Of a DNA stretch of 64,000 nt, positions 16,578-27,206 are shown piece after piece. The stretch comes from a virus. Lineage: Duplodnaviria; Caudoviricetes. The notes beneath the pieces are model-generated. The model was not told where the DNA came from and ran no database searches. It saw nothing but the letters and a program-made list of their open reading frames with translations. Within the stretch, counting starts at the first letter, position 1. Each line of letters opens with the position of its first letter. Position numbers and translations under genes: made by a program. The DNA lies in IMG/VR virus record IMGVR_UViG_3300012943_000033, positions 6,641-70,640 of that record. One strand, 5' to 3'.

Positions 16578-18026
16578 ATGGCCCTCCCTCTGTTCGCGCC
16601 GACTGCCGCGCCTGCCCCTCCTCCCGACCTCGCGGCGAATGCCGCAAGCTACTACACGCTGAACCCGGCTCTGAGGGAGTTCTGGGAGACCAACGCCCGT
16701 CACAAGGTACTGTACGGAGGGCGAGCCTCCTCCAAGTCTCACGATGCCGCAGGACACGCCATTTTCCTTGCCGCCAATTACTGCGTCAAGTTCCTCTGCG
16801 CCCGCCAGTTCCAGAACCGCATCAGCGAATCGGTCTACACCCTGCTCCGGGATAAGATCAACAACAGCCCGTACCGTCGCGAATTCGAGGTGTTGAAGAC
16901 CTCGATACGGCACCGCATCACTGGCAGTGAATTCCTCTTCTATGGCATCGCCAGAAACCTGGAAGAGATTCGGTCCACGGAGGGCGTGGACGTACTCTGG
17001 CTGGAGGAGGCACACTACCTGGACGCTAATCAATGGCAGGTGATTGAGCCGACGATTCGTAAGGCAGGCTCCCAGATTTGGCTTATCTTCAACCCTGACG
17101 AGTACACTGATTTTGTGTACCAGAATTTCGTCGTCAACCCTCCGTCCAACACCATCGCCAGAGAGATAAACTGGCGTGAAAATCCGTACCTCTCCGCGAC
17201 CATGCTCCGGGTCATCTATGACTACTACAGGCGCGAGCCGGAGAGCGCCCTTCACGTGTACGGAGGGCAACCCAAGATGGGTGCGGACCGCTCCGTGATA
17301 CCGCTCAAGTACATCATCGCGGCAGTTGACGCCCACAAGAAATTGGGCTGGGAACCGGGCGGCTCCAAGGTGGTCGGATTCGACGTGGCCGACGATGGCG
17401 AGGACAAGAACGCCAGCGTGGAGTCGCATGGCAACATCATTTTGAAGGCGGACGAATGGCAGGGGCTGGAGGATGAGCTTCTGAAATCCTGCTCCAAGGT
17501 TTACAACCTGGCGCTGGAGACGGGCGCCAAAATCGTCTGGGACTCCATTGGGATTGGCGCCTTCGCGGGGTCCAAGTTCGCGGACCTGAACGATGAGCGC
17601 AAGCGAAAGGTGGTGTACGAACCTTTCAACGCAGGCGGAGCCGTAGACAACCCCAAGGGCGTTTACATGAAGCTGCCGCACGTCTCGATCACCAACGGCG
17701 AACACTTCGCCAATATCAAGGCGCAGCGGTGGGACGAAGTAGCCATCAGGTTCAGGAAGACGCACGAAGCGGTGGAGAAAGGCGTCAAGCATCCGTTCGA
17801 TGAACTGATCTCCCTGAACTCCGCCACGCTGGGCGCGGCGATGATCAAGAAGATTCAGCTGGAGCTTGCGGCTCCCCATAAGGATGTGGACCGAATGGGC
17901 AAGTTCAAGGTGGAGTCCAAGGAAGACCTCCGGGACCGGGGCATCAAGTCCCCCAACGTAGCGGACGCCCTGATAATGTCCTTGATTCGCCCCAAGCGCG
18001 ACCCGTCCACATTCTTCAGCCGCTAG
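16578..18026 (+). CDS. terL: Terminase large subunit (PBSX/T1-like)
   Basis: Walker A YGGRASSKS; Walker B WLEEA; nuclease GFDVADDGED; C-terminal SPNVADALI. Confidence 0.95.
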   Translation: MALPLFAPTAAPAPPPDLAANAASYYTLNPALREFWETNARHKVLYGGRASSKSHDAAGHAIFLAANYCVKFLCARQFQNRISESVYTLLRDKINNSPYRREFEVLKTSIRHRITGSEFLFYGIARNLEEIRSTEGVDVLWLEEAHYLDANQWQVIEPTIRKAGSQIWLIFNPDEYTDFVYQNFVVNPPSNTIAREINWRENPYLSATMLRVIYDYYRREPESALHVYGGQPKMGADRSVIPLKYIIAAVDAHKKLGWEPGGSKVVGFDVADDGEDKNASVESHGNIILKADEWQGLEDELLKSCSKVYNLALETGAKIVWDSIGIGAFAGSKFADLNDERKRKVVYEPFNAGGAVDNPKGVYMKLPHVSITNGEHFANIKAQRWDEVAIRFRKTHEAVEKGVKHPFDELISLNSATLGAAMIKKIQLELAAPHKDVDRMGKFKVESKEDLRDRGIKSPNVADALIMSLIRPKRDPSTFFSR

Positions 18027-20635: not shown

Positions 20636-20785
20636 TTTCACTTTCAGGTTGTTGGGTTGGGCAACCGCTGCCCGCCTCGATTCTAGAGGGTATCGCGATT
20701 TGGTGTGGCTGGTCAACGCGGTACATCGTACACGGCGCATAATCCGGCGCGAGCCTACCGCGACACTTCACAAGGTGCCACCACA

Positions 20786-23700
20786 ATGTTCAAAACCCTA
20801 ATCGCCAAAATTCGCGGACAGTCCAAAACCAACTTCGTGGAGGAACCTGATGGCGCGAAAGAGGCGAAGGCGGTTGACCCTCTGGACCCTATCGCGCGCA
20901 CTCCTCGCATGTTCGATGAGAGCGGCAACCTCCACCAAGGCTTTGCCGCCCAACTCCGGAGCGTTGACGAATTCACAGTGTTCGACGGGCTGGCCGGAGA
21001 CGACACGCAGTCCAAAGCTACAGTGGGTGACGAAGCGGTCACCATCAAGGGCGCGGCAGCGATGGATGACGGCGAGGGTTCTGGTCCCTTCGGCATGAAG
21101 GGCAATATGGGCATGGGCATGCCCGATTCGATTGGCCTCTGGTACATGTCCCAGGGGTTCTTTGGTTACCAAGCATGCGCGATCATCGCACAACACTGGC
21201 TGGTGGACAAGGCATGCTCGATGAGCGGAGAGGATGCCGCGCGGAATGGCTGGCATATCACTTCGGAAGGTGGTGACGACCTTCCGAAGGCGGAGTACGA
21301 TGCCATCACCAAGATGGACAAGGAATTGAAGATCAAAGAAAATGTGGTGGAGTTCAACCGCTTCAAAAACATCTTTGGTATCCGCCTCGCCATCTTTACA
21401 GTGGAGACGGATGACCCGCTGTACTACGAAAAGCCCTTCAATATCGACGGAGTACGCAAGGGAGCCTACAAGGGCATTTCCCAGGTGGACCCGTACTGGA
21501 TGACGCCGATTCTGAACACGGCAGGCTCTAGCGACCCTTCCAAAATCGGATTCTATGAGCCTCAGTACTGGGTGATCAACGGCAAGAAATATCACATCAG
21601 CCACCTCGCCATCGCTCGCGGCCCGCAACCCGCCGACATCCTCAAGCCCACCTACATCTTTGGCGGCGTGCCACTGACGCAGCGCATTTATGAACGGGTC
21701 TACGCTGCGGAGCGGACGGCGAACGAAGCCCCACTGTTGGCCATGTCGAAGCGCACAATGGCGATCCACGCAGACGTGGACAAAATCCTCGCCAATCAGT
21801 GCGATTTCGAGAACCGGCTGAGCCTCTGGATTAAGTATCGCGACAACCACGGCATCAAGGTTCTGGGAACCGAAGAGGCCATGGAACAGTTCGACACCAC
21901 GATGACCGATTTCGATTCGATCATCATGAACCAGTATCAAATCGTCGCGGCCATCGCGCGAGTGCCCTCCACGAAGCTGTTGGGCACCTCTCCGAAGGGC
22001 TTCAACGCCACCGGTGAGTTCGAGTCCAAGAGCTACCACGAGGAATTGGAGAGCATTCAAGAGCACATCATGATGCCGATGCTTGAGCGGCATTACATGC
22101 TGTTGGCCCGCTCGATGGGCCTCCAGACTGCCCTGGGCGTGGTATGCAATCCGGTGGACTCCGTTACCACGAAAGAACGGGCCGACCTCAACAAGCTGAA
22201 GTCGGACGTTGCGGTGTCCTACATCAACTCTGGCGTGATCTCCCCTGACGAGGAGCGCAACCGCCTGATGGACGATGAGCATAGCGGCTATGACCGGCTC
22301 AAAGAGGAGGTATCAGCGGAAGGCCAACCGGGCATGTCGCCTGAGAACCTCGCGAACCTCCAGAAAGCGGGCGCGGCAGAGACTGCGGCTGAACAGCCGA
22401 CCGCACCCGGAGGCGTACCGGGTGAGACCGACACAGTAGACCCCAGCGCCTCAGCGTCTCCCGCCGCAATCCAGGCCCTCCTACCTCTCCTCCTCTCCGG
22501 CGTGTCTACGGGCGGCAAGGCAGCGGACCCGGCCATGGCCGCCCTGCTCCTCCTCCTGGGAAAGATCGTCAGCCAACCCGATGCCGCGCCTGTCGATGCG
22601 GGACCGAGCGTCAAGCCCTCCGTATCGCCATCCACAAGCCGCTCCGTCCAGCGCGTAGAGGACGCGGAGATTGTACGCCAGCTACCCCTACACAGGATGC
22701 CAAAAATCAGGCTTAACGGCCTAAATTTGGTCGTGGAGAATCCTCGCGGCACTCTCCGGACGGGGACGGACATTGAAGGGCGTGAGTGGGCGTCGGAGAT
22801 GCCAGACCACTACGGCTTCATCAAGGGCTACGAAGGCGCAGACGGTGACGACGTTGACTGCTTCATCGGCCCCGACCTCCGCTGTGGCGAGGTTTACGTC
22901 ATCACGCAGAATTGCCCGGAGACTGGGGAGTTTGACGAATACAAGTGCATGATCGGCTACACCTCCCCGGAGCATGCGGAGGAAACCTACCGCCAAGCCT
23001 ACTCCGATGATTGGGATGGATACGGCGACATGCAGGTGATGCCTTGGGACGAATTCCAAGACTGGTTGGACTCCGGCTCCGGCGCGCATGCGATGGACGA
23101 ATTCAAGGAGGGCGACCACCCACGGGCGGAGAACGGCCAATTTGGGCAGGGCACTGGAGGCGCGGCGAGCGCGTCAAAAGAGGCGACCGCAGCCGTGAAG
23201 AAGGCCAGCAAGAACACACCTAAATCAGCCGCAGTGACTCCGACCAATACGCCCTCAACGAAGGGTACAGGGAAGGCTGCGAAGGCTGCGAAAACCACGG
23301 AAAAGCCCGCGAAGCTGAAGAGTGGGGGTTTTGCGAGTCTGACGAAACTGCCAGAGAACCGGGAAGCGTGGCCAGCCCACGTGAAGGCGTTGAACCTGCC
23401 GCCAGCTTGGCAAAACGTACACGCCTCAACCGACCCCAACGCCTACCTGCTGGCACAGGGGCGCGACGCAAAGGGCCGTCCACAGTCGGTCTACTCCGCC
23501 GCGTGGACGGAGGCGAAGACGGCAGAAAAGTTTGGGCGCGTGAAGGGGATGAACGAAGAAATCGCCCAGATGAAGGACAAGATTTCATCTGACCAAAAAT
23601 CGGAGAACGCCAAGACCCGCAACACCGCCGACGCGATGTCAGTGGTGGTCAGCATGGGCATTCGTCCGGGCAGCGATACGGACACGAAGGCGGACACGAA

Positions 23701-24151
23701 GGCATACGGGGCATCCAACCTGGAGGCGCGGCACGTCAAGGTGGGCGAGGACGGCAGTGTGACCTTGGACTTCACCGGCAAGAAAGGCGTGGCCCTGAAC
23801 CTGCCCGTGTCCGACCCAGGCGTGGCCGCGATGCTCAAGGAGCGGAAGGCGAGCGCAGGCGCTGACGGGCGGCTGTTCCCTGGTGTGTCCGACAAGGGCC
23901 TGCTAGAATATTCTCACAGTCTCGATGGTGGTGACTTTAAGACGAAGGATTTCAGAACCTTCGCGGGCACCTCCCACGCGACGAATACGATCAAGGGCAT
24001 GACAGCCCCAACCAACGAAAAGGAATACAAAAAGGCGGTCCGCGAGGTAGCCAACGGAGTCTCACAACTGCTGGGGAATACCCCAACCGTGGCGCTCCAA
24101 AGCTACATCGACCCGTCCGTGTTCTCTGAATGGAAGGCGAACCTGAAATGA
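20786..24151 (+). CDS. Portal protein (DUF1073-like) fused to an inorganic-pyrophosphatase-like domain and a C-terminal type IB DNA topoisomerase
   Basis: Portal motifs (QHWLVDKAC, YKGISQVDPYW, AAIARVP.TKLLGTSPKGFNATGE); IENPRG..R.G..W..M..HYG..G..GADGD.VDCFIGP domain at ~22697-23080; TopIB motifs LPPAW, GRD.KGR.Q..Y, IRPG, F.GKKG, KDFRT, LGNT, SYIDP at ~23350-24151; single open frame. Confidence 0.9.
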   Translation: MFKTLIAKIRGQSKTNFVEEPDGAKEAKAVDPLDPIARTPRMFDESGNLHQGFAAQLRSVDEFTVFDGLAGDDTQSKATVGDEAVTIKGAAAMDDGEGSGPFGMKGNMGMGMPDSIGLWYMSQGFFGYQACAIIAQHWLVDKACSMSGEDAARNGWHITSEGGDDLPKAEYDAITKMDKELKIKENVVEFNRFKNIFGIRLAIFTVETDDPLYYEKPFNIDGVRKGAYKGISQVDPYWMTPILNTAGSSDPSKIGFYEPQYWVINGKKYHISHLAIARGPQPADILKPTYIFGGVPLTQRIYERVYAAERTANEAPLLAMSKRTMAIHADVDKILANQCDFENRLSLWIKYRDNHGIKVLGTEEAMEQFDTTMTDFDSIIMNQYQIVAAIARVPSTKLLGTSPKGFNATGEFESKSYHEELESIQEHIMMPMLERHYMLLARSMGLQTALGVVCNPVDSVTTKERADLNKLKSDVAVSYINSGVISPDEERNRLMDDEHSGYDRLKEEVSAEGQPGMSPENLANLQKAGAAETAAEQPTAPGGVPGETDTVDPSASASPAAIQALLPLLLSGVSTGGKAADPAMAALLLLLGKIVSQPDAAPVDAGPSVKPSVSPSTSRSVQRVEDAEIVRQLPLHRMPKIRLNGLNLVVENPRGTLRTGTDIEGREWASEMPDHYGFIKGYEGADGDDVDCFIGPDLRCGEVYVITQNCPETGEFDEYKCMIGYTSPEHAEETYRQAYSDDWDGYGDMQVMPWDEFQDWLDSGSGAHAMDEFKEGDHPRAENGQFGQGTGGAASASKEATAAVKKASKNTPKSAAVTPTNTPSTKGTGKAAKAAKTTEKPAKLKSGGFASLTKLPENREAWPAHVKALNLPPAWQNVHASTDPNAYLLAQGRDAKGRPQSVYSAAWTEAKTAEKFGRVKGMNEEIAQMKDKISSDQKSENAKTRNTADAMSVVVSMGIRPGSDTDTKADTKAYGASNLEARHVKVGEDGSVTLDFTGKKGVALNLPVSDPGVAAMLKERKASAGADGRLFPGVSDKGLLEYSHSLDGGDFKTKDFRTFAGTSHATNTIKGMTAPTNEKEYKKAVREVANGVSQLLGNTPTVALQSYIDPSVFSEWKANLK

Positions 24152-24348
24152 CCGGAAAAATTGACCTCCCTGACGTTTACTTCGGGTCAGTGGACGCCCC
24201 TCCAGCCGACTGGAGGGCATACGAAGAGGAAGACCCGGATGATGAGGAGCTGGCAGAGACGCCAGAAAGCGTTGTCTTGATGTTGGGTTTCGACCCGCTG
24301 GAGCTTGACGAAGACGAAGATGGCGTTCCAAGCCCGGAAAACGCGTGA
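24148..24348 (+). CDS. Small highly acidic protein
   Basis: ATGA overlap with the portal-TopIB stop; EEEDPDDEELAETPESVVLMLGFDPLELDEDED. Confidence 0.75.
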   Translation: MTGKIDLPDVYFGSVDAPPADWRAYEEEDPDDEELAETPESVVLMLGFDPLELDEDEDGVPSPENA

Positions 24349-25174
24349 GGTAAAGCGCCCAGACCCGGTTGGGATGGGCAAACCCCTCACACCTAGCGCC
24401 GCTGTACGTTCGTGGTATGAGAGCCAAATGCTGTCTGTGGTGAACCCGATGATCGCGGACTACAAGAAAGAATTGGCGGCAGCGTTTGCCCACCCGGACG
24501 TGGCGAAGATGTACGCGATGGATGATGCTGCGGCATCCACGTTCCAGCGGGCACTCCGGGCGCTGAACAAAAAGTGGAGCGAGATTTTCAAGGGCTTCGC
24601 TGCCCAACTTGCCCCAGAGTTCGTGGACAAGGCCGACGCCCACTCAAAGTCCAGCACCTGGTTCAGCCTGAGCGCGGCAGGCGTCGAACAGCCGCGCCAA
24701 CAGTACACCGACTCAGTGTCCCGTACACTGGAAGCCTCCGTCAGCTACAACAGCACGCTCATCACAGGCATCCAAGAGGAGCTACACGAGAAACTGTACA
24801 ACTCCGTCATGCTCTCCCTTACCTCGCCAAACCCGGAGGAACAAGGCATGAGCGGGATTGCCAACGCGCTGAGAGAGGCAGGCATAACCTCCAAGGCCCG
24901 CGTGGACCTGATCGCCCGCGACCAGAATAGCAAGCTGAACGCCTCTCTGGGTACGGAGCGCATGCGCCAGAACGGCGTGGAGTTCTTTGAGTGGATGCAC
25001 TCCTCCGCAGGCAAAGTGCCGCGCCAATCGCATCTGGACAAGGACGGCGAGATTTTCGCTGTGGATGACCCTCGGCTCTGGGAAGGCCCCAAGGCCGATC
25101 AAGGCCCGCCCGGTTGGGCGATCAATTGCAGATGCAGGGCGAAACCGCTCATTGGATACTACAAGGACGATTGA
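24320..25174 (+). CDS. Head morphogenesis protein (MuF/SPP1 gp7 family)
   Basis: LIARDQ.SKLN......R....G...F.W.HS....PR.SH...DG.IF....P......PG.AINCRC. Confidence 0.9.
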   Translation: MAFQARKTREVKRPDPVGMGKPLTPSAAVRSWYESQMLSVVNPMIADYKKELAAAFAHPDVAKMYAMDDAAASTFQRALRALNKKWSEIFKGFAAQLAPEFVDKADAHSKSSTWFSLSAAGVEQPRQQYTDSVSRTLEASVSYNSTLITGIQEELHEKLYNSVMLSLTSPNPEEQGMSGIANALREAGITSKARVDLIARDQNSKLNASLGTERMRQNGVEFFEWMHSSAGKVPRQSHLDKDGEIFAVDDPRLWEGPKADQGPPGWAINCRCRAKPLIGYYKDD

Positions 25175-25688: not shown

Positions 25689-27206
25689 ATGCCAGCCGCC
25701 TCCGCCCGCCTACAAGACCCCAACGGCTTCCTGCTGGTCAAAGGTTGCCCAATTTCGTCTTATGGCATTTTCCAATACTCCGCAGGGCAGGTTGGGCTGA
25801 AGGACGGCGACCCTGATCGCATCATCAACGTCTTCCGCCCAGAGTCGGCAGTGACCGACCCAGGCCTCATCCAGAGCCTCCAGAACGTCCCGCTGATCAA
25901 CGATCACGAGATGCTGTCCGGCTTCGTGGATGATGAATCCGCGACGGCCCCAGAGGACTATGGGATTGACGGCGTCCTCTTCGATGTGTCGTACCAACAG
26001 CCCTGGCTTCGTGGTGACGTAAAGGTCTTCACGCGGAAGATGCAAAATGATCTGAACAATGGCAAGAAAGACTTGTCGTTGGGCTACACTTGTGACTTCG
26101 CCATGCAGGCTGGGGAGTTCAATGGCGTGCGCTACGATTGCATTCAGACCAATATGCGCGGCAACCACATCGCCCTTGTTGGCGCTGGTCGCGTGCCTGG
26201 TGCAAAGGTTCTTGACGGTCGCAGTGTCCTTTGTTACGACCACCTTGATCTCCACCCTACCCAAAAAGGAAGCCACATGGCAAAACGTAAGGCGTCAATG
26301 GACAGCGATGCAGTCGCCCAGCTGCGCGCCCAGCTGAAGGCCCTCCTCCCTGCCTTCGAACAGTTCCTGAACGAAGAGGCCACCGAGCCTGCACACGACC
26401 CGGCTGCTGTCGCTCCGCCTGCCGCTGCCGCCCCGGCTGCGCCTGCGGCTGTTGCAGAGCCGACCGATGTGGCCGTGGACCCTGCCGCTGCCGCTGCTGT
26501 GGCCCCTGCCGCTGCCGCTCCGGCTGCTGTGGCACCGCCCGCCGCTGCCGCTCCGGCTGCGCCTGCTGGCGACCTCCCGGCTCTGATCACCCAACTCGAA
26601 CAAGTCCTGACGCAGCTGAAGGCCGCGTGTGGCGGTGGCGAGGGCGGTGGAGAGGCTCCCCCAGAAGGTGGCGAAAGCGAGGGTGACCCCGCTCCGTCCT
26701 CCGAAGAATCACCAACCAACGAGGGCGATGACATGCCTGAAGCAAACGAAACCCCAGCGGAAGAAATCCCCGAAGGCGACGCCGTTGAAGGTCTGGCCGA
26801 AGACCCCAACAGCCAGATGATCAACGCAGACGAAGCCGCACCCGACAACGGTGGCACGGCATCGCCTGGCCCGGCTGCTGGCAAGCACTCCGGCAAGAAC
26901 ACCGGTGACGCAGCGATGCGCGCGGTGTACGCCGACATCGCTGCCAAGACCAAGCTGTACGACCGCCTGTCCAAGGTGGTGGGCGCATTTGACGGCGCCA
27001 TCGACATCCAGACGGCGACAGCCGCTGACGTTGCCTCCTATGGCGTCCAGAAGCTGAAGCTGAAGGCACCCAAGGGCGGCGAGATGGTCGCCCTGGACAA
27101 CTATCTCTCCGGGGTGGAAGCTGCGCGCCGCGCCGCTCCCGCCGCCAAACGTGCCGCCGACGCGGCCACCTCCGTGCCCGTGATCGACGCCTACTTCAAG
27201 GAGTAA
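25689..27206 (+). CDS. Prohead protease (DUF2213) with C-terminal scaffold region
   Basis: D.NGFL..KGCPISSYGIF.Y; P.INDHEML; LSLGY.C; NHIALV..GR..GA.V.D; Ala/Pro- and Glu-rich C-terminus. Confidence 0.9.
   Translation: MPAASARLQDPNGFLLVKGCPISSYGIFQYSAGQVGLKDGDPDRIINVFRPESAVTDPGLIQSLQNVPLINDHEMLSGFVDDESATAPEDYGIDGVLFDVSYQQPWLRGDVKVFTRKMQNDLNNGKKDLSLGYTCDFAMQAGEFNGVRYDCIQTNMRGNHIALVGAGRVPGAKVLDGRSVLCYDHLDLHPTQKGSHMAKRKASMDSDAVAQLRAQLKALLPAFEQFLNEEATEPAHDPAAVAPPAAAAPAAPAAVAEPTDVAVDPAAAAAVAPAAAAPAAVAPPAAAAPAAPAGDLPALITQLEQVLTQLKAACGGGEGGGEAPPEGGESEGDPAPSSEESPTNEGDDMPEANETPAEEIPEGDAVEGLAEDPNSQMINADEAAPDNGGTASPGPAAGKHSGKNTGDAAMRAVYADIAAKTKLYDRLSKVVGAFDGAIDIQTATAADVASYGVQKLKLKAPKGGEMVALDNYLSGVEAARRAAPAAKRAADAATSVPVIDAYFKE

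Follow-up and report, generated by a model that had tools for sequence, protein, structure and literature searches.

In poxviruses, a minimal type IB DNA topoisomerase (TopIB) is carried in the virion core, where it is available before viral gene expression and supports early transcription. The vaccinia enzyme acts by forming a 3'-phosphotyrosine and can transfer the bound strand to a 5'-OH acceptor. Tailed phages are known to bring a few proteins into the cell with their DNA, and to our knowledge a DNA topoisomerase is not among the described cargo. Here we describe a gene of an uncultured tailed phage (Duplodnaviria; Caudoviricetes) that encodes a portal protein fused in one frame to a TopIB with a complete set of catalytic residues. 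The gene is located in a window of 64,000 nucleotides, which represents bases 6641-70640 of the IMG/VR record IMGVR_UViG_3300012943_000033 (70,640 bp, CheckV completeness 100%).

The closest described phage systems are portal proteins followed by enzyme domains. A fusion of a portal with a type I pyrophosphatase-like (InPase) domain, BcepF1.124, was described and predicted to be injected by Iyer, Burroughs, Anand, de Souza, and Aravind in 2017 (PMC5512222), and effectors fused to portal and MuF proteins were predicted to be injected as well. The present gene shares with the polyvalent proteins of that paper a virion anchor followed by enzyme domains and a place among the head genes of a terminase-portal phage; the portal, the InPase, and the TopIB, an anchor with its effectors, are joined in one polypeptide among virion genes. 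The two differ in cargo, since the catalogue of PMC5512222 lists InPase but not TopIB, and the word "topoisomerase" occurs there only in the reference list. No description of a TopIB with a portal, nor of polyvalent proteins with a topoisomerase, was found in the searchable literature. Portal-InPase and effector fusions are therefore known, while the TopIB cargo, the connector peptide preceding it, and the acidic partner protein encoded behind it are new to this literature. A 2026 paper that deals with portals in the stringent response was set aside, since its subject is surfaces of T7 gp8 and not fused domains.

The gene is a single open reading frame (ORF) of 1,121 codons on the plus strand (3,363 nt with no internal stops), terminated by the stop codon at 24149-24151 (Table 1). 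The ATG at 20786 is preceded by AAGGTG 11 nt upstream, and the most upstream possible start is GTG at 20705. Four domains were recognized in the protein by a Pfam scan, each over its gathering score: Phage_portal_3 (PF06381, aa 128-475, E 4e-82), InPase (PF18823, 145.7 bits at a cut-off of 26.8), Top1B_N_bact (PF21338, aa 866-894, 29.1 bits at a cut-off of 27), and Topoisom_I (PF01028, aa 908-1103, E 4e-22, 79.2 bits at a cut-off of 23.7). This is the order of portal, linker, pyrophosphatase-like domain, and TopIB that had been read in a first-pass annotation of the window.

The portal part matched gp19 of the PB1-like phages Pa193 (9b41, E 9e-231) and E217 (8fvh, E 4e-191), with which it is homologous through the InPase to the end of gp19 and shares the gene neighborhood. 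In the portals of these two phages resolved by cryo-electron microscopy, residues 94/97-528 of 765 are ordered, residues 529-765 have no density, and the C-terminal helical barrel points into the head of the virion. We infer by analogy with E217 and Pa193 that the present protein also assembles as a 12-mer at the unique vertex and that its C-terminal tail is encapsidated: residues beyond ~aa 535 would be inside the capsid because the barrel points inward and the segment 529-765 is disordered. Residues 1-770 share ~54% identity with the "minor head protein" of phages of Pseudomonas (Pbunavirus), Burkholderia, and Xanthomonas, the hosts of the portal relatives. Matches in GenBank relatives stop at about residue 765 of the query, which is the end of the InPase; gp14 of the Pseudomonas phage datas is 765 aa long and the protein of a Burkholderia relative ~830 aa, with a MuF gene directly following in both. 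Compared to gp19 of E217 and Pa193, which ends at residue 765, the present protein is longer by ~355 aa that contain the connector, a basic linker, and the TopIB. Both the termination of PB1-like portals at the InPase and the inward orientation of the extension agree with what the first-pass annotation had supposed.

The last 353 residues matched the TopIB of Deinococcus radiodurans (2f4q) in a phmmer search against Protein Data Bank sequences (E 2.5e-22). Residues R137, K174, R239, N280, and Y289 of the D. radiodurans enzyme are aligned to the identical R960, K999, R1057, N1098, and Y1107 (nucleotides 23663, 23780, 23954, 24077, and 24104), confirming the five catalytic positions assigned in the first-pass annotation, and none of the five varies among 57 aligned relatives. 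The AlphaFold2 model of aa 840-1121 has a mean predicted local distance difference test (pLDDT) score of 94.4 and a predicted template modeling score of 0.88. Its top Foldseek matches were the TopIB structures 3m4a, 2f4q, 2h7f, and 3igc, all with probability 1.00 (D. radiodurans TopIB, E 4e-14; DNA-bound variola TopIB, template modeling score (TM) 0.74, root-mean-square deviation 3.2 A). Tyrosine recombinases ranked far behind, and the model has the two-domain C-clamp fold, so the TopIB assignment, for which profile and structure searches had been suggested, holds with both. The TopIB thus appears to be active, and ATP-independent relaxation via a 3'-phosphotyrosyl intermediate is predicted.

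The two-domain build and the R-K-R-N-Y set, with Asn in place of the poxvirus His, are shared with bacterial TopIB (D. radiodurans, 2f4q and 3m4a; Pseudomonas aeruginosa, PMC2666729). Identity to bacterial enzymes is only ~27-29%, compared to 45-67% within the phage family, and the bacterial enzymes are stand-alone cellular proteins, whereas the phage TopIB is fused to virion genes or adjoins them. The poxvirus enzymes (vaccinia and variola, 2h7f) are related in fold (TM 0.74) at ~17% identity and have His instead of Asn at the fourth catalytic position.

Table 1. Coordinates of the portal-InPase-TopIB gene, its parts, and neighboring genes in the window
Feature	Coordinates	Strand	Basis or remarks
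Whole portal-InPase-TopIB gene (1121 aa + stop)	20786..24151	+	Open frame, four Pfam domains
Portal core (wing, stem, clip, crown, inward barrel helix), ~aa 95-535	21068..22390	+	Matches to Pa193/E217 gp19
Ala/Pro/Leu-rich linker 1, aa 536-636	22391..22693	+	No family match; equivalent part of Pa193 gp19 without density
InPase (type I pyrophosphatase-like) domain, aa 637-761	22694..23068	+	PF18823, E 1e-42
Connector motif DEFKEGDHPRAENGQFG, aa 771-787	23096..23146	+	Sole genuine occurrence in the window
Basic Ala/Lys/Pro/Thr-rich linker 2, ~12 Lys and 2 Glu per ~58 aa	23147..23338	+	Translation
TopIB N-terminal beta-sheet domain, aa 852-903	23339..23494	+	PF21338; strands 13-64 of the AlphaFold2 model
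TopIB catalytic domain with R960, K999, R1057, N1098, Y1107	23507..24148	+	PF01028, 2f4q alignment, fold matches
Translationally coupled 66-aa acidic partner ORF	24148..24348	+	ATGA overlap with the TopIB stop; net charge ~-20
Large terminase (context)	16578..18026	+	phrog_3717, phrog_2
MuF-like head morphogenesis gene (context)	24320..25174	+	PF04233, phrog_324; true start ATG 24320
Pa193_gp24-type protease/scaffold head protein (context)	25689..27206	+	phrog_3778; orthologue of relatives matches PF09979
Major capsid protein (context)	27831-28964		Gene order
Tail sheath (context)	31481-33001		Gene order

Nine other proteins of 1100-1155 aa (P0002-P0010) with the same four domains were found in independent assemblies from Logan, ENA, NCBI, and JGI. 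Their TopIB parts are 58-67% identical to that of the window, and the contigs of four of them contained the gene as one ORF in the same neighborhood. In a tree of 240 TopIB sequences, the ten four-domain enzymes formed one clade with a support of 1.0, which suggests a single acquisition in the PB1-like lineage followed by vertical descent. An assembly chimera or a sequencing error that joined two genes could be imagined, since TopIB is a separate gene after the portal in other phages, but the frame has no stop over its whole length, and the single ORF recurs in the nine other assemblies, which come from different sources, with the connector likewise at the junction. Misassembly is very unlikely because of these nine independent proteins and the single TopIB clade, and we consider it hardly credible.

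In metagenomes at large, the TopIB occurs in a wide variety of contexts. A metagenome search for fused forms, limited to proteins of 616-1962 aa, revealed at least 344 protein clusters in which a TopIB of this family (45-67% identity) is fused to other domains. According to a tally of 119 listed relatives, 80 have a portal anchor, belonging to the families Phage_portal_3 (75, including 22 with InPase), Portal_Mu (3), Phage_portal (1), and Phage_portal_2 (1). Four carry the scaffold-like domain Pa193_gp24, 15 a NUDIX domain without a portal, and 14 no further Pfam domain, and others contain ADP-ribosyltransferase (ART), zeta-toxin, Acb1, SNF2, or DdrB-ParB domains. The TopIB is C-terminal in 102 of 120 proteins (the 119 listed and that of the window), and the 240-tip tree shows at least 79 changes of anchor label. 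A second search yielded at least 192 shorter proteins (155-494 aa, 46-58% identity), mostly stand-alone TopIBs. Three stand-alone genes on long contigs are located in the head module after the portal, two directly and one three genes downstream, with ART, Acb1, zeta-toxin, and HAD_PNKP genes as neighbors.

The picture was different in described phages. A tblastn search with the TopIB part revealed no real match in 50,697 GenBank phage records; the two weak matches were top1E of Bacteroides phage BS162P1, which lies close to the beginning of a partial record and is surrounded by hypothetical genes with no annotation, and an unannotated uncultured phage. The absence of the fusion from described PB1-like phages, expected in the first-pass annotation, is thus borne out. 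Portal-TopIB fusions, which it had proposed to look for elsewhere, turned out to be numerous in metagenomes and absent from GenBank phages, so the fusion of this TopIB to other domains is common (the 344 or more clusters), while a paper characterizing it was not found. Stand-alone TopIB genes of the jumbo phages Motura, NCTB, phiRSL1, Lu11, and PaBG have been treated as replication or topology genes (PMC7824862). They are likewise phage-encoded and have the catalytic domain of the tyrosine-recombinase type, but they gave no match to the present TopIB at E<=1e-5 (tblastn).

The variety of anchors bears on the two roles that had been put forward for the enzyme, a swivel held at the portal and a protein released from the virion and injected. 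In the former, the portal-bound TopIB would nick and reseal DNA and so relieve the twist imposed by the terminase motor in packaging, or act likewise in ejection. A position at the inner mouth of the portal, no need for ATP, long flexible linkers with a basic Lys-rich tract that could keep the domain on DNA, and the portal being the anchor in 80 of the 119 listed relatives would all suit this function. However, TopIB is often encoded by a separate gene or carried by scaffold-like, NUDIX, ART, or zeta-toxin proteins without a portal, most tailed phages, including PB1-like relatives with portals ending at the InPase, package their DNA without TopIB, and a swivel would not explain the obligate acidic partner described below. 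We therefore consider the tethered swivel unlikely. With unfused and non-portal TopIBs being so frequent, and with NUDIX, ART, Acb1, and zeta-toxin domains among the fusion partners that play no part in packaging, the proposal of a released or packaged cargo is favored, and that of a portal-bound swivel recedes.

We hold with moderate confidence that the TopIB is an enzyme cargo of the capsid interior, a phage counterpart of the virion TopIB of poxviruses. It would be a cargo of the head rather than a part of the packaging machine because it occurs on four portal families, on a scaffold-like protein, on effector enzymes, or as a separate gene. The C-terminal extension of the portal into the capsid would bear two enzyme cargoes in series, an InPase-like phosphohydrolase and the catalytically complete TopIB, and the latter was probably acquired as a mobile cassette of four parts: the connector, the basic Ala/Lys/Pro linker, the two-domain TopIB, and the coupled acidic partner. 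In related phages, the cassette is attached to different anchors of the head interior or forms a gene of its own that follows the portal gene directly. Virion proteins encoded beside the capsid genes have been detected in Pa193 by liquid chromatography-mass spectrometry (gp20, gp21, and gp24). Pa193 gp20 corresponds to the MuF-type gene of E217 and datas, and the scaffold-like PF09979 protein is gp24.

With the cassette forming part of the portal dodecamer, each head would be expected to enclose up to 12 copies if the tail is uncleaved, next to the last-packaged and first-ejected DNA end. Their volume is not a problem, as 12 x 62 kDa is estimated to take up the space of roughly 500-900 bp of packaged DNA. 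The TopIB would probably be freed at the connector and leave the head with the DNA. ATP-independent relaxation could then be ready at the first moment of infection, ahead of phage gene expression, with the entering genome or the host DNA as the putative target. The enzyme may belong to a starter or counter-defense kit together with the InPase, ART, Acb1, and NUDIX cargo. Unlike the putatively packaged phage enzyme, the poxvirus enzyme is a free core protein not linked to a portal.

Several observations weigh against such a cargo. No cultured phage of the GenBank set carries the cassette. TopIB, a folded domain of 32 kDa, could pass the ~37 A lumen of the tail tube only after partial unfolding or more, and twelve molecules would be few if the host chromosome is the target. 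In the AlphaFold2 model of a natural fusion of TopIB with the acidic module (P0175), the TopIB was predicted with confidence, and the module had pLDDT values of 44-69 and was not confidently docked. Finally, the pentamer YCCTT, cut by poxvirus and Deinococcus TopIB, is not avoided in the phage genome (258 sites compared to 214 +/- 14 in shuffled sequences), although this pentamer may not be the site of the phage enzyme. YCCTT is slightly over-represented; in the late-gene region, the majority of the sites are on the minus strand, which is probably a by-product of codons containing AAGG and of ribosome-binding sites on the coding strand.

A different use of the same position is conceivable, in which the TopIB would cap the portal-near end of the genome, protecting it from exonucleases such as RecBCD, or join the genome ends after entry, with the acidic partner holding the enzyme off DNA until then. 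It would draw on the 3'-phosphotyrosine chemistry and the strand transfer to 5'-OH established for vaccinia TopIB, on the location of the domain beside the last-packaged end, and on the invariance of the whole pentad, the catalytic Tyr included. This covalent handling of ends is quite improbable, as the IMG/VR record is classed as linear with end repeats not found, and TopIBs that are stand-alone or attached to non-portal proteins would not sit at the end.

If the TopIB is indeed a head cargo, it would be the first parallel in bacterial viruses to the poxvirus core topoisomerase, and the control of DNA topology at entry would matter for phages as well. The cassette is widespread and modular, with one connector for many anchors, and travels with known or suspected counter-defense enzymes (Acb1, ART, and NUDIX). 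It may therefore provide a handle on the loading of packaged effectors and their exchange among phages, and foreign proteins might one day be directed into capsids by tagging them with the connector or the acidic leader.

The connector and the obligate placement of the acidic partner after TopIB are features beyond those of the first-pass annotation. The connector has the consensus ExxHPRxxxGxF, in a fuller form E(F/W)xExxHPR...G.F followed by a Gly-rich tract. The only further match to the pattern in the window was in an ORF of 51 codons. A Gly-rich stretch separates the connector from linker 2, whose composition is alike in the relatives. Nearly all of the inspected fused relatives have the fuller form and its Gly tract ahead of TopIB, often with an insertion of 3-5 residues. 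The strict pattern was found in 57 of 120 fused proteins, which is an undercount, since inspection of the junctions finds the connector in nearly all. It is also present near the N-terminus of many stand-alone TopIBs, in ART proteins of the relatives right after an N-terminal acidic module, and at several domain borders of larger proteins. No Pfam model corresponded to it in the scan of the 1121-aa protein. The term "HPR" is not present in PMC5512222, a text in which the acidic partner was not searched by name, and a paper on MuF polymorphic toxins mentions neither a connector-like motif nor a topoisomerase. Judging by its positions in these proteins, the connector is the boundary of anchor and cargo. 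It could serve as a recombination joint, a recognition peptide, or a protease site, and its location ahead of the cassette makes it a candidate site for processing or recognition of the cargo.

The stop codon of the fusion gene overlaps the start of the acidic ORF, which is preceded by GGAAGG and overlaps at its 3' end the true start of the MuF gene at 24320; the MuF N-terminus beginning there is aligned with the MuF proteins of relatives. An equivalent of the 66-aa ORF was absent from the compared PB1-like phages without TopIB, among them E217 and Pa193, and a tblastn search of GenBank phages found none. In close relatives, the same position is occupied by an ART of 516-628 aa, in which the first ~52 residues share 60-67% identity with the 66-aa protein and the connector comes next. 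In other phages, Acb1 proteins and one protein containing an ATLF-type metallopeptidase domain also begin with the acidic leader. A profile of this module (DVHFG..DWR..DDDEEL..TP.DV..LGFDP, ~55 aa) matched 953 representative clusters at E<=1e-3, 277 of them at E<=1e-10. Of the 150 members listed, 148 have the module within their first 30 residues, 106 are 50-115 aa long, and 31 exceed 250 aa.

Six loci were looked up via the acidic module alone, and the context was resolved for five. TopIB was located directly upstream of the module in all five, save for an HNH-like gene between them in one case. Taken together, the module directly follows TopIB in 12 of 12 resolved loci (11 besides the window, a prophage remnant included), and the two genes overlap by 1-17 nt in most of them. 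The TopIB sets also include 17 fusion proteins that have the module 3-30 residues after the TopIB domain. On the basis of the conserved adjacency, the translational coupling, and the natural fusions, we regard the module as a probable functional partner of the enzyme. In the ESM Atlas, the 66-aa protein is modeled as disordered (pLDDT 0.29), and it matches no named family.

Most likely, the acidic partner binds TopIB, either as a lid or inhibitor in the producer cell, or as a docking adaptor for further cargo, or both. The acidic charge and the predicted disorder of the module, reminiscent of a DNA mimic, would fit a lid, while its occurrence at the head of other cargo proteins, as an N-terminal leader, would fit an adaptor. 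A pure immunity role is not the sole reading of the 66-aa ORF, since the protein is homologous to the leader of larger cargo proteins. The likeness of the coupled genes to enzyme-inhibitor pairs, together with the grouping of the fusion with late head genes, could also point to an enzyme that acts only late in the producer cell, with host DNA or the replicating or concatemeric DNA of the phage as its substrate, and is clipped or irrelevant in the virion. We give little credence to this, because repeated independent fusion to head-internal anchors and placement in head modules would make little sense for a cytoplasmic enzyme, and the early and middle replication genes are elsewhere in the genome. 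The DNA polymerase and helicase genes are on the opposite strand, away from the head module.

The cargo reading can be extended to a hub at the portal on which further cargo is loaded. The acidic module, disordered and similar to DNA, would clamp into the DNA-binding groove of TopIB, silence the enzyme in the producer, and lead ART, Acb1, or metallopeptidase cargo into the head; upon infection, TopIB freed at the ExxHPR connector would covalently cap or join the first-entering end or relax the DNA for early transcription. Such a combined scheme is speculative and, taken as a whole, has a low probability.

The interval between the portal and MuF genes in relatives contains the 516-628-aa ART and an ORF of ~105 aa (loci L004:7312-8862, L005:7375-9072, and L024:3583-5469), and only the leader module is present in the window. 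From gene content, this interval looks like a hot spot for gain and loss of cargo genes. At one locus (L010:316-819), a Cys-rich HNH-like ORF of 167 aa, probably a homing endonuclease, is inserted exactly between TopIB and the acidic partner. In a genome bin of Castellaniella sp. (L013:4458-5994, on a 231-kb contig), the last ~80 portal residues are fused to TopIB, followed by the acidic module. A Mutator-family transposase gene adjoins this remnant, LysR and GGDEF genes lie on its flanks, and the TopIB-partner pair survives here outside of a phage. Together with the portal relatives, the remnant suggests Burkholderiales as possible hosts of phages with the cassette.

The gene order of the window is of the PB1-like myophage type: terminase, portal fusion, MuF, protease/scaffold, capsid, sheath, and tail/baseplate genes. 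The fusion gene is the sole portal gene of the head module and is located between the large terminase and the MuF, protease, and major capsid genes, an order kept in the relatives. At another locus (L007:1911-3918), the portal was called as two overlapping ORFs, the second with an ART domain, which may reflect a frameshift, either real or due to a sequencing error; TopIB, Acb1, and MuF genes follow with successive overlaps of 1-8 nt. A relative of 666 aa (P0036) is named "anti-CBASS Acb1 family protein, partial" at NCBI, while Pfam recognized only the portal and TopIB domains; the name was likely carried over from portal-Acb1 fusions. In three related phages, a divergent cluster of small genes between the terminase and the portal contains a DUF3846 gene (minus strand; L004:2334-2696 and L005:2354-2668).

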